Shown here: positions 47,650-58,234 of the stretch, in pieces | Position numbering within the stretch: position 1 is the first letter of the stretch | Layout of the letters: every line of letters begins with the position of its first letter | DNA from: Escherichia coli | Lineage (GTDB): Bacteria; Pseudomonadota; Gammaproteobacteria; Enterobacterales; Enterobacteriaceae | DNA: 64,000 bases | Strand: one strand, 5' to 3' | NCBI RefSeq assembly: GCF_041248615.1 | Contig: NZ_CP158426.1 | Notes under the pieces: generated by a model | Told to the model about the DNA's origin: nothing | Databases searched by the model: none | What the model saw: the letters and a program-made list of their open reading frames with translations, nothing else | Position numbers and translations under genes: made by a program

Positions 47650-47693
47650 ACGCACAGAATGTGATGTCAGCACTCTGTGCGTCTGCTTTTATC
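47650..47693 (+). terminator. Rho-independent terminator of eamA; island-side regulator stop codon lies inside its T-tract
   Basis: Stem CGCACAGA/TCTGTGCG with 15-nt loop followed by TCTGCTTTTATC. Confidence 0.6.
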
Positions 47694-48387
47694 GCGGGAA
47701 AAAGTACTTTACCTGGAACTCGAAAATATTGCTGTAAAGTAACGAATAATCCAGCGGAATAGAGTTACTGTCCACAGCCTGGGTCTGAATTTTAAGTATG
47801 GGATCCCGTGGGCTGATCCGTAAAATACTGGCGATTTCTGGGGTAGGAAAAGTAGGGGAGAAAGTTTCAAAGGTGCCAATGATTTTGATCCCGCATTCGT
47901 TCTCAATATACGAAAATTTGGATTTTTGCATATGTGCTACGGTTAAATCAGGAAAACGTGCCACTGACATCCACGTTTCTTCTAATTGTGCTGCATTATC
48001 CTCAATGAATCGCAGTCTCTTTATGTAATAAACCTGCTCACCAGTCACTAAATTCAGCTCAGTCGCAATAGGGGGAGAAGCATCCTGCACTTCAAATTTC
48101 ATAATCTGACTTCCTGCCTCCTTGCCGCTTTTATGCGCAATTTCACTGAAGCTGTTCATGTGATCAATGTGTGCAACAAAATTCTTTTTTTGAATATATG
48201 TTCCTGAACCATGCTTTCTATGAATAATTCCTTCGCCTTCCAGCAAGGATAATGCCTTACGCAGGGTATTACGCGAAACATTATAACGAACAGCGAGTTC
48301 AGCTTCTGACGGCAACAAATCACCAACATGCCATGAATAGCCATTGATCTCGGATTTAAGTAAGCGGGCAATCTTTTGAAAAATCAC
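47689..48387 (-). CDS. GntR/HutC-family transcriptional regulator with UTRA effector domain, 232 aa (bgcR-like), GTG start
   Basis: Track ORF 232 aa; N-terminal GntR HTH (LPSEAELAVRYNVSRNTLRKALSLLEGEGII) ; divergent from the PTS operon. Confidence 0.85.
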   Translation of the reverse strand: MIFQKIARLLKSEINGYSWHVGDLLPSEAELAVRYNVSRNTLRKALSLLEGEGIIHRKHGSGTYIQKKNFVAHIDHMNSFSEIAHKSGKEAGSQIMKFEVQDASPPIATELNLVTGEQVYYIKRLRFIEDNAAQLEETWMSVARFPDLTVAHMQKSKFSYIENECGIKIIGTFETFSPTFPTPEIASILRISPRDPILKIQTQAVDSNSIPLDYSLLYSNIFEFQVKYFFPR

Positions 48388-48502
48388 TTTTGCACCTTTT
48401 AAGAGCCATTGAAAACAAGGAGTTGAGTCCTGATTGGTTTATCGTATGGTCGAGTCGTTTAATTATCACCCTGATGTTGAACAACTTTAGTGCTGTATTA
48501 CT

Positions 48503-48518
48503 GTGATCAATGTACCAG
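48503..48518. promoter_or_regulatory. Candidate CRP site in the PTS operon promoter
   Basis: TGTGA-TCAATG-TACCA (8/10 to TGTGA-N6-TCACA); a TATGAT -10-like hexamer at 48539-48544 would place it near -41.5. Confidence 0.3.
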
Positions 48519-48560
48519 GACGTATAGCTACTGCGGGATATGATATTTACACAATGTAAT

Positions 48561-48574
48561 CTGTTATATACCAG
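48561..48574. promoter_or_regulatory. Candidate HutC-type operator (imperfect palindrome) immediately upstream of EIIB RBS
   Basis: CTGTTATATACCAG resembles GT-N-TA-N-AC style HutC-family operators; overlaps predicted 5' UTR. Confidence 0.25.
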
Positions 48575-48585
48575 TAAGGGAAAAT

Positions 48586-48897
48586 ATGAAAAAGATATTG
48601 TTAGTTTGCGCTGCGGGCATGTCAACCAGTATGCTGGTTAAACGTATGATTGATCATGCTAACGCTATTTCACTTGAAGTTAATATTTCCGCATTGGCGA
48701 TTGCAGAGGCTAAAGGGAAAATTAAAAATAACGAAGTTGACGTTGTTTTACTTGGCCCGCAAGTTCGCTTTCAGAAACCAGAGATTGAAGCTGTTGCACA
48801 GGGGAAAATGCCTGTAGCTGTTATCGAGATGAAAGACTATGGCACCATGAACGGACAGGCAGTTCTTGAATTTGCGATGAAACTACTGCAAGAGTAA
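48586..48897 (+). CDS. PTS lactose/cellobiose-family EIIB component, 103 aa (bgcE-like)
   Basis: Track ORF 103 aa MKKILLVCAAGMSTSMLV... with phosphorylatable Cys in LLVCAAGMSTS motif. Confidence 0.9.
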   Translation: MKKILLVCAAGMSTSMLVKRMIDHANAISLEVNISALAIAEAKGKIKNNEVDVVLLGPQVRFQKPEIEAVAQGKMPVAVIEMKDYGTMNGQAVLEFAMKLLQE

Positions 48898-49010
48898 GAA
48901 TCTAATATTATTAAACTATTACCTGAACTAACTTTTCACACATCATAAAATGGATATGGCATACATGCTTTATTGGGATGTATAAATATCCAGAACAACA
49001 GGTATAAAAA

Positions 49011-50333
49011 ATGGGATTAATGACCTCATTCGAACGTGGAATGGAACGTTTTCTTGTTCCAGTTGCTATCAAGTTAAACTCACAAAAACATGTTGCAGCG
49101 GTGAGAGATGGATTCGTTTTTACGTTTCCAATTATCATGGCAAGCTCATTAATTATATTAATTAACTTTGCCATATTATCGCCCGACGGCTTTATTGCCG
49201 GGCTGCTGCATCTGAACCGCGTTTTCCCCAACCTTGAAAAAGCACAAGCTATTTTTACTCCGGTAATGAATGGCTCTGTAAATATCATGTCAATTATGAT
49301 TGCTTTCCTGGTCGCCAGAAATATGGCGATTAGCTATGAGCAAGATGATCTTTTATGCGGATTAACGGCAATAGGAGCATTTTTTATTGTTTATACGCCA
49401 TATCAGATGATAGATGGGCAAGCATTCCTGACGACCAAATATCTCGGCGCACAGGGGTTGTTTGTTGCTGTTATCGTTGCATTAATCACCAGTGAAATAT
49501 TTTGTCGCTTAGCTCGAAACCCAAAAATCACCATAACGATGCCGGCAGCTGTACCTCCTGCGGTATCGCGTTCATTTAAAGTTTTATTGCCAATATTTTT
49601 TGTCATGGTGTTCTTTTCCGCACTTAATTATTGCCTGACACTGATATCCCCGGCAGGATTAAACGATCTCATTTACACATTAATCCAGACGCCGCTCAAA
49701 CATATGGGAACGAATATCTTTGCGGTAATTATCCTGGGGGCTGTGGGTAATTTCCTGTGGGTGCTGGGGATCCACGGACCTAATACCACCTCGGCAATTC
49801 GAGAAACTGTTTTTTCTGAGGCTAATCTGGAGAATCTCTCCTGGGCCGCTCAACACGGCACTACCTGGGGCGCGCCATATCCGATTACCTGGACTTCTAT
49901 TAATGATGCATTCGCCAACTGCGGCGGTTCAGGTATGACGTTGGGGTTATTGTTGGCTATTTTTATCGCGTCTAAGCGTGCGGAATACCGTGATCTGGCA
50001 AAAATGTCGTTTATCCCCGGTATTTTCAATATCAATGAACCGATAATGTTCGGCCTTCCTATTGTACTTAACCCCATCATGATGGTGCCGTTTATTCTGG
50101 TTCCCATTGTTAACTGTGCCATTGGTTACTTCTTTGTTTCGATGGAAATTATTCCACCGGTTGCTTATGCCGTGCCCTGGACTACGCCCGGACCTTTAAT
50201 TGCTTTCCTCGGAACCGGGGGAAACTGGTTGGCGTTACTGGTGGGTTTTTTATGTTTAGGTGTGGCGACAATGATCTATTTACCTTTTGTTATTGCCGCC
50301 AACAAGGTCAATAACATGACAACTAACGGATAA
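49011..50333 (+). CDS. PTS lactose/cellobiose-family EIIC permease, 440 aa (bgcF-like)
   Basis: Track ORF 440 aa polytopic membrane protein with EIIC-type layout. Confidence 0.88.
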   Translation: MGLMTSFERGMERFLVPVAIKLNSQKHVAAVRDGFVFTFPIIMASSLIILINFAILSPDGFIAGLLHLNRVFPNLEKAQAIFTPVMNGSVNIMSIMIAFLVARNMAISYEQDDLLCGLTAIGAFFIVYTPYQMIDGQAFLTTKYLGAQGLFVAVIVALITSEIFCRLARNPKITITMPAAVPPAVSRSFKVLLPIFFVMVFFSALNYCLTLISPAGLNDLIYTLIQTPLKHMGTNIFAVIILGAVGNFLWVLGIHGPNTTSAIRETVFSEANLENLSWAAQHGTTWGAPYPITWTSINDAFANCGGSGMTLGLLLAIFIASKRAEYRDLAKMSFIPGIFNINEPIMFGLPIVLNPIMMVPFILVPIVNCAIGYFFVSMEIIPPVAYAVPWTTPGPLIAFLGTGGNWLALLVGFLCLGVATMIYLPFVIAANKVNNMTTNG

Positions 50334-50354
50334 TCCCATTTACACAGGAAGGAG

Positions 50355-50672
50355 ATGTTGATGTTTGCAGATGAAGAACTTGTTATGGAGTTACTGATCA
50401 ACGCGGGACAGGCACGTTCTGATGCGATGGAAGCCATACGTTGTGCCGGGCAAAAAGACTGGCAGGGCGCAACTCAGCTAATGGCCAGTTCGGAATTAGC
50501 CTGTCTTCAGGCACATAAGATTCAGACCGCGTTAATTAGTCAGGATGAAGGTTGTGGCAAAATAGAAGTTAATTTAATTCTGGTTCATGCACAGGATCAT
50601 TTGATGAATGCAATATTATGCCAGGATTTAGCCAGGGAAATTATTTCATTAAGAAAAGAGCTCCATGCCTGA
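50355..50672 (+). CDS. PTS lactose/cellobiose-family EIIA component, 105 aa (bgcI-like)
   Basis: Track ORF 105 aa, all-helical EIIA-lac type with conserved His in VHAQDHLM; AGGAAGGAG RBS. Confidence 0.9.
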   Translation: MLMFADEELVMELLINAGQARSDAMEAIRCAGQKDWQGATQLMASSELACLQAHKIQTALISQDEGCGKIEVNLILVHAQDHLMNAILCQDLAREIISLRKELHA

Positions 50673-50676
50673 TTTT

Positions 50677-50702
50677 TTCCTCCAGTGCGATAGCTGGAGG
50701 AA
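50677..50702 (+). other. Intra-operon stem-loop between EIIA and porin genes
   Basis: Perfect 9-bp stem TTCCTCCAG/CTGGAGGAA, 8-nt loop, preceded by T6 and followed by AUUAUUACACUCUU, ending 26 nt before porin ATG. Confidence 0.45.
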
Positions 50703-50724
50703 ATTATTACACTCTTAAGGATAA

Positions 50725-54845
<4,121 letters not shown>

Positions 54846-54874
54846 TGAGACTTCAGGAAGATATTACGGAGATA

Positions 54875-58085: not shown

Positions 58086-58234
58086 AACAGATTATCGGGT
58101 GAGTTGCGAAAAAGTGATGAAATGATCTTAAAACGGTTAATGATGTGAATACAATGCATTTGTGATCTGGATCGCGTTTTCCGTTTCTCTGACGCTGATT
58201 CTTTCACGCGTCAGAGAGTCGGTCACATCACGGT

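Follow-up and report, generated by a model that had tools for sequence, protein, structure and literature searches.

Promoter layout of the Escherichia coli bgc β-glucoside operon: a predicted class II CRP promoter and a candidate upstream site for BgcR

Comparison of the bgcR–bgcE control region of E. coli with orthologous regions of other enterobacteria pointed to a class II CRP promoter in front of the bgc operon, at which the regulator BgcR would act from an upstream dyad, whereas a palindrome in the predicted 5′ UTR would not be the operator. We give this reading a probability of roughly 0.6. The logic of CRP and BgcR control was reportedly worked out genetically by Neelakanta, Sankar and Schnetz in 2009, and the present finding therefore adds little to it. 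Two modest additions are a base-precise promoter model backed by conservation, with CRP at −41.5 and a −10 hexamer at 48539–48544, and a candidate BgcR site that differs from the operator expected for a HutC-type protein. The operon forms an accessory sugar-utilization island that reportedly is overrepresented among extraintestinal pathogenic E. coli. All positions below (Table 1) are those of the window, i.e., the whole stretch of 64,000 nucleotides of E. coli DNA that was analyzed.

Table 1. Features of the bgc island and its control region in the window
Feature	Position	Strand	Remarks
bgcR	47689–48387	minus	GntR/HutC-subfamily regulator, 232 aa, GTG start (Pfam, RefSeq WP_000577190.1)
Ribosome-binding site of bgcR	48392–48399	minus	AAAGGTGC on the minus strand, GCACCTTT on the plus strand; read from sequence
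Conserved block AAAACAAGGAGTT	48412–48424	none	AAAACA-N4-GTT; from the alignment
Dyad, candidate BgcR site	48457–48482	none	GTTTA-N16-TGAAC, 26 bp, centre 48469.5; family consensus GTTCA-N16-TGAAC
CRP site, 22-mer TACTGTGATCAATGTACCAGGA	48499–48520	none	Degenerate in E. coli; core 48502–48517, centre 48509.5
−10 hexamer of the bgcE promoter	48539–48544	plus	TATGAT, conserved spacing
Predicted transcription start	48551	plus	Plus or minus 2–3 nt; placed 7 nt downstream of the −10 hexamer
Imperfect palindrome CTGTTATATACCAG	48561–48574	none	Arms CTGTTAT and ATACCAG, 6 of 7 pairs; about +11 to +24 in the predicted 5′ UTR
Shine-Dalgarno sequence of bgcE	48576–48581	plus	AAGGGA; read from sequence
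bgcE	48586–48897	plus	PTS EIIB of the lactose/cellobiose family, 103 aa, first gene of the operon (Pfam PTS_IIB, NCBIfam)
bgcF	49011–50333	plus	EIIC (ORFs, Pfam/NCBIfam, RefSeq)
bgcI	50355–50672	plus	EIIA (ORFs, Pfam/NCBIfam, RefSeq)
bgcH	50728–52401	plus	LamB-type porin (ORFs, Pfam/NCBIfam, RefSeq)
bgcA	52420–54848	plus	GH1 6-phospho-β-glucosidase, interrupted (Pfam, RefSeq)
Transposase of the IS3-family element in bgcA	53100–54328	minus

The bgc island and its control region

Positions 47689–54848 of the window are the E. coli bgc island for uptake of β-glucosides and cellobiose, which has already been described. ORFs and Pfam/NCBIfam matches placed bgcR divergent from bgcE-F-I-H-A, which code for EIIB, EIIC, EIIA, a LamB-type porin and a GH1 protein, and the RefSeq annotation has eamA and marB as the flanking genes. 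This combination of a divergent GntR-type regulator with PTS IIB, IIC and IIA, a porin and a phospho-β-glucosidase agrees in gene set and order with the description of bgc given in PMC3585215. The block was 100% identical to that of E. coli NRZ14408 and was carried by approximately 2,495 of 5,426 complete E. coli genomes. It is thus present in only part of the species, as well as in E. albertii, and has homologs in Citrobacter, Enterobacter and others, in keeping with an accessory island; orthologs were found in E. albertii, Citrobacter, Salmonella, Enterobacter, Kluyvera, Raoultella, Cedecea, Yersinia and Erwinia. The abstract of the 2009 study is said to give a similar distribution, with bgc in a subset of E. 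coli and in E. albertii, and homologs in other enterobacteria.

The bgcA copy of this strain carries an IS3-family element that divides it into fragments located at approximately 52426–53157 and 54420–54848, both of which are pseudogenes in RefSeq. The Pfam Glyco_hydro_1 match covered only profile positions 5–200 of 453 and was followed by rve integrase domains. Because bgcA is interrupted, the operon cannot be fully functional in this strain. A search at seed 9 found no inverted repeats of the element in bgcA. Most other E. coli matches had no insertion at this exact position.

BgcR has the architecture of the HutC subfamily, an N-terminal GntR winged helix-turn-helix domain (PF00392, residues 4–65, 8.4e-19) followed by a C-terminal UTRA effector domain (PF07702, residues 87–218, 6e-30), and its closest relatives among solved structures in the PDB were YvoA/NagR, YydK and DasR. 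The GTG start that had been proposed for its gene from the sequence was supported: the GTG and an AGGTG ribosome-binding site were conserved in the aligned orthologs, the RefSeq protein has the same start and, at both ends, the same boundaries as the ORF, and the GntR domain begins at residue 4. The block CACTTTTGCACCT around the ribosome-binding site was conserved in 13 sequences. The 198-bp interval that separates the regulator from the EIIB gene, 48388–48585, was likewise confirmed by the ORFs and Pfam matches. No Rfam family was matched within 48300–48700.

Our comparison comprised E. coli and 13 orthologous regulator-to-operon regions, whose regulators were 51–86% identical: those of E. 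albertii, three Citrobacter, Salmonella, Enterobacter asburiae, Superficieibacter, the assembly P0012, Kluyvera, Raoultella, Cedecea, Yersinia and Erwinia. They were gathered by protein search and contig look-ups; a contig scan with BgcR gave only three loci. The interval was 187–200 bp long in 12 of the 14 regions. A GntR/UTRA homolog at locus L021 (4812–5001), which has a GH1 gene and a gene for a glucose-family EIIBC as neighbors, was rejected as a bgcR ortholog: it was 48% identical, belonged to a different operon and lacked both the conserved layout and the dyad described below. It appears to belong to another family of regulators that recognizes a different operator.

Within E. coli, the control-region allele of the window (48370–48610) is in the minority, as 231 E. 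coli records were ≥99% identical to it and 2,278 were 95–99% identical. None of the 17 polymorphic positions among E. coli alleles fell in a dyad half-site, in the CRP 16-mer or in the −10 hexamer. One of them, C/A at 48550, lies next to the predicted transcription start, and a G/A polymorphism at 48580 falls in the Shine-Dalgarno sequence of bgcE.

On the bgcR side, a further conserved block was found 25–37 nt upstream of the GTG (48412–48424). Its ACA and GTT were invariant across genera, and it had two differences between E. coli and E. albertii. This block could be the core promoter of bgcR or an autoregulatory site.

Putative CRP site and −10 hexamer

The CRP consensus is TGTGA-N6-TCACA. 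A CRP-like 16-mer described in the earlier note, TGTGATCAATGTACCA, is indeed present, once in the window, but one position away from where it had been placed (48502–48517, not 48503–48518). It agrees with the consensus at 8 of 10 core positions (TGTGA-N6-TACCA), its left half being perfect and its right half matching at 3 of 5. We scored the site with an approximate weight matrix, symmetrized and built from 17 classical CRP sites, the training sites of which score 3.3–16.9 bits. The E. coli 22-mer reached 3.2 bits and ranked 292nd of 63,979 window positions, with approximately 0.8 equally good matches expected per 198 bp; in isolation, it is not beyond chance. The best match to the matrix in the window was ATTTGTGATCTGGATCGCGTTT (58158–58179, 17.6 bits), approximately 73–94 bp upstream of the start of the minus-strand gene ydeA (sotB).

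Evidence for the site came from the orthologs. The half-site TGTGA(T/C)C was conserved in all 14 aligned regions, as cTGTGA(T/C)C, and the aligned 22-mer scored 8.9–14.75 bits in eight orthologs, or nine counting Erwinia: Salmonella and Enterobacter asburiae (14.75 each), Superficieibacter (13.7), C. koseri (13.3), Citrobacter On2M (11.2), Erwinia (10.1), P0012 (9.8), Yersinia (9.2) and Cedecea (8.9). The aligned site was the best CRP match of its region in 9/13 cases, or 10/14 with Erwinia. In Kluyvera, Raoultella and C. amalonaticus the promoter-proximal half-site was poor (4–6 bits), and the E. albertii site scored 0.6 bits. Between E. coli and E. albertii, the block 48493–48516 was invariant (P ~0.001). 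Judged by conservation and spacing, the CRP site looks real, and the E. coli and E. albertii sites appear to be decayed copies of one that is strong in other genera. The decay concerns the promoter-proximal half, which reads TACCA followed by GGA in E. coli and TAACAAAA in orthologs that reach up to 14.75 bits.

The TATGAT hexamer noted previously as −10-like is also present in the window, and it is again not beyond chance when taken in isolation in E. coli; together with the CRP site, it is conserved in 14/14 regions, both in sequence and in the exact spacing. A TAnnnT hexamer began exactly 37 bp after the start of TGTGA in all 14 regions, compared with no more than 3/14 at every other offset from 10 to 61. 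The orthologous hexamers include TATGAT, TAATAT, TATTAT, TAACAT, TAAAGT and TACAGT, and 8 E. coli alleles and E. albertii all have the same hexamer. The −10 hexamer begins 29.5 bp downstream of the centre of the CRP site, which places that centre at −41.5 relative to the predicted start. Class II CRP promoters are defined by a CRP site centred at this position.

A consensus promoter scan of the control region found no sigma-70 promoter on the plus strand because there is no recognizable −35 element, and the class II geometry explains this missing element. The proposal that a catabolite-activated promoter reads into the EIIB gene is therefore supported by the fixed spacing. The 5′ UTR of bgcE would be approximately 35 nt long, counted from the predicted start. 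The same scan reported ATAACA-16-TATCAT (9/12) on the minus strand at 48540–48567, directed toward bgcR and overlapping both the palindrome and the plus-strand −10 hexamer; minus-strand matches were not above chance, with 2 found and 1.5 expected.

Candidate sites for BgcR

An unbiased search for perfect spaced dyads common to the orthologous regions ranked GTTCA-N16-TGAAC first. It was present with no more than one mismatch in 14/14 regions, always at a similar position, 68–70 bp from the bgcR start (91 bp in Yersinia) and 18–19 bp before TGTGA. In E. coli its centre falls at approximately −81.5 from the predicted start and approximately 40 bp upstream of the CRP centre, a position that suits an upstream co-activator. 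With the bgcR start codon 69 bp away, the dyad may act on bgcR as well. With one mismatch allowed, such dyads are not rare in the E. coli window (3 found, 2.1 expected). Exact copies were clearly enriched beside bgcR: 6 were found in 95 kb of orthologous loci, compared with approximately 0.09 expected, and all of them were located in regulatory regions next to this gene.

Five of the six exact copies were in bgcR-operon intergenic regions. The sixth, GGTTCA-N16-TGAACC, is a second copy in Cedecea neteri (L012, 4765–4790), between bgcR and an adjacent ROK-kinase/GH1 gene pair. The surrounding 356-bp stretch (L012, 4709–5064) contained six TGAAC/GTTCA half-sites, compared with approximately 0.7 expected; the CRP/−10 layout of the bgc promoter was absent from this upstream region, in which only the dyad and the extra half-sites were present. 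This copy is located 57 bp after the bgcR stop codon and 275 bp before the ROK gene, with a T-run after it, and its placement means that it could have another role.

Operators of the HutC family are roughly 10–20 bp palindromes with the canonical core GT-N-TA-N-AC / TGT-N4-ACA. The dyad does not have this compact form. Its half-sites are separated by 16 bp and their centres are 21 bp apart, i.e., about two helical turns, unlike known HutC-family operators. We consider the dyad most likely to be the best candidate for the BgcR binding site; if BgcR does bind there, the mode of binding would be atypical for the family.

The atypical spacing would fit another reading, in which the dyad belongs to the promoter of the divergent bgcR gene or is bound by a different factor, and BgcR binds instead at the 48412–48424 block or at TATTTACACA (48544–48553), which overlaps the end of the −10 hexamer and the predicted start. 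We regard this as unlikely. The block is conserved in orthologs, and its equivalent in C. amalonaticus contains an exact HutC core, TGTATAAACA, but in most species it is a poor match to that core, with 2–3 mismatches. TATTTACACA is the only match to the core TGTNTANACA with one mismatch in the region, where 0.05 such matches would be expected per 198 bp; however, E. albertii has not kept it (3 mismatches) and other genera have nothing equivalent, and it was rejected as the main operator for this lack of conservation. Moreover, the dyad is the one candidate with an exact further copy, at a second β-glucoside promoter region beside a bgcR ortholog, which favors the dyad as the BgcR site.

The earlier note had proposed a repressor bound in the 5′ UTR, with the imperfect palindrome CTGTTATATACCAG just upstream of the bgcE ribosome-binding site as a HutC-type operator. 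The palindrome is present where the note had placed it. In this scheme CRP would activate the promoter and BgcR would repress it from the palindrome until an inducer releases it. Most characterized members of the HutC family are indeed repressors, e.g., BguR, GmuR, YvoA/NagR and DasR, and the TGT...ACC of the palindrome loosely resembles TGT-N4-ACA operators. However, a match to TGTNTANACA within 2 mismatches was not found at the palindrome. Its 8-mer TTATATAC has one mismatch to the HutC core, and 0.56 such matches are expected per 198 bp. The palindrome itself is at chance level: the window contains 89 palindromes of 14 bp with no more than one mismatched pair, which corresponds to 0.28 per 198 bp, and to 1.6 when spacers of 0–4 are allowed.

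Conservation of the palindrome is confined to Escherichia. It was invariant in the 8 E. coli alleles and matched at 13/14 positions in E. albertii, but given the 24.7% intergenic divergence between the two species the latter corresponds to P ~0.10, and with 17 polymorphic columns among the E. coli alleles an unbroken 14-mer is unsurprising. Near-palindromes similar to the AT-rich TTAATATATTAA occupy the same place in the clade of Citrobacter, Salmonella and Enterobacter, which share only an AT-rich core (TTAATAT) with it. In the alignment, nothing comparable was found at this position in Kluyvera, Raoultella, Cedecea, C. amalonaticus, Yersinia and Erwinia, although these have kept the regulator, the CRP site and the −10 hexamer. 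The predicted 5′ UTR folded with −7.4 kcal/mol (z = −0.56 relative to shuffled sequence), giving no sign of a structured leader or of a hairpin at the palindrome. In addition, PMC3585215 describes BgcR as acting positively on bgc. Repression from this palindrome is thus distinctly improbable, and the sequence is probably a leader segment conserved within Escherichia and not an operator. Taken as a whole, the model of the earlier note was borne out for the CRP site and the −10 hexamer and not for the operator, and it had missed the dyad upstream, which among the regulator-like elements is the best conserved.

It is very improbable that cTGTGA(T/C)C is the recognition sequence of BgcR and not a CRP site, CRP dependence then being indirect or exerted via another site: the low scores of E. 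coli and E. albertii as CRP sites, the family-wide conservation of the left half alone and a TGTGAAC in the Cedecea ROK-GH1 upstream region would agree with this, but a good full CRP site (9–15 bits) is present in eight or nine genera and is mostly the best match of its region, the exact −41.5 geometry is kept in 14/14, and neither a second copy nor an inverted partner, as would be typical of a dimeric GntR site, is evident.

Proposed mechanism and comparison with known systems

In the preferred reading, a class II CRP promoter with BgcR at the upstream dyad, the bgcE promoter would depend on activators, having the −10 hexamer TATGAT and no usable −35. CRP bound at −41.5 would overlap the −35 position and directly contact RNA polymerase. 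Because the promoter-proximal half of the E. coli CRP site is decayed, CRP alone is probably insufficient, and a second activator, BgcR, would be needed. BgcR on the dyad would help CRP and/or RNA polymerase to occupy the promoter, such that RNA polymerase is brought to this promoter without a −35 element by cAMP-CRP at −41.5 and dyad-bound BgcR together.

In Escherichia, the weak proximal half-site would make BgcR indispensable and keep expression low, and a single substitution giving a stronger CRP site or −10 hexamer would be expected to bypass BgcR. Two substitutions illustrate the effect on the matrix score, which rises by 4.1 bits with C48515A and by 5.2 bits with G48519T; G48519A, or a change of the −10 hexamer from TATGAT to TATAAT, would be further candidates. 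The abstract of the 2009 study reportedly states that bgc expression is CRP-dependent and that a single-base promoter mutation, bgc*, makes it independent of BgcR, and the predicted bypass agrees with this phenotype. The decayed sites of E. coli and E. albertii (3.2 and 0.6 bits) fit a cryptic phenotype and also a requirement for a second activator, which suggests that bgc is cryptic in Escherichia through a CRP site degraded relative to other genera.

A broader version of this proposal extends it to at least 10 enterobacterial genera, in which a HutC-family activator would act on a wide dyad at approximately −81.5 together with a class II CRP site, the crypticity of the Escherichia operon being due to decay of the CRP half-site from TAACAAAA to TACCAGGA. 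We hold it tentatively, at somewhat less than even odds. If true, activation by BgcR from a wide dyad would represent a non-canonical DNA-binding mode and a non-canonical regulatory role for the HutC family.

The gene set, gene order and distribution are those of the published E. coli bgc operon, and the window carries that locus, with the difference that bgcA of this strain is split by the IS3-family element. As in class II CRP promoters such as galP1, the putative CRP site of bgcE is centred at −41.5 from the predicted start and the −35 element is weak or absent. In contrast to simple class II promoters, the proximal half of the bgcE site is degenerate (TACCA), and the promoter apparently needs an operon-specific activator bound upstream, i.e., it would be co-dependent.

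Two other E. coli systems for related sugars are relevant. Like bgc, bgl is a cryptic β-glucoside system with a sub-optimal CRP site that single-base changes can unlock, in the case of bgc reportedly so. The two differ in that bgl involves H-NS silencing and antitermination by BglG, whereas bgc has a GntR-type activator and a PTS of the lactose/cellobiose family. The bgl promoter is cryptic and CRP-dependent, and point mutations within its CRP site switch it on (PMC2646131). The chitobiose/cellobiose operon chb (chbBCARFG) resembles bgc in its PTS family (IIB, IIC, IIA) and in a cryptic cellobiose phenotype, but it is regulated by the AraC-type protein ChbR and by NagC from a different promoter layout, while bgc uses a GntR/HutC protein.

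With respect to its protein family, BgcR shares the GntR winged helix and the UTRA domain with BguR of S. pneumoniae, GmuR of B. subtilis, YvoA/NagR and DasR, and HutC-family repressors of cellobiose-type PTS operons have the same kind of target operon. These repressors bind compact palindromes with a TGT-N4-ACA core that overlap the core promoter, for example AAAAATGTCTAGACAAATTT in the case of BguR. BgcR is unlike them in being reported as a positive regulator, in the lack of a conserved canonical core in its control region and in its candidate site, a wide dyad at approximately −81.5.
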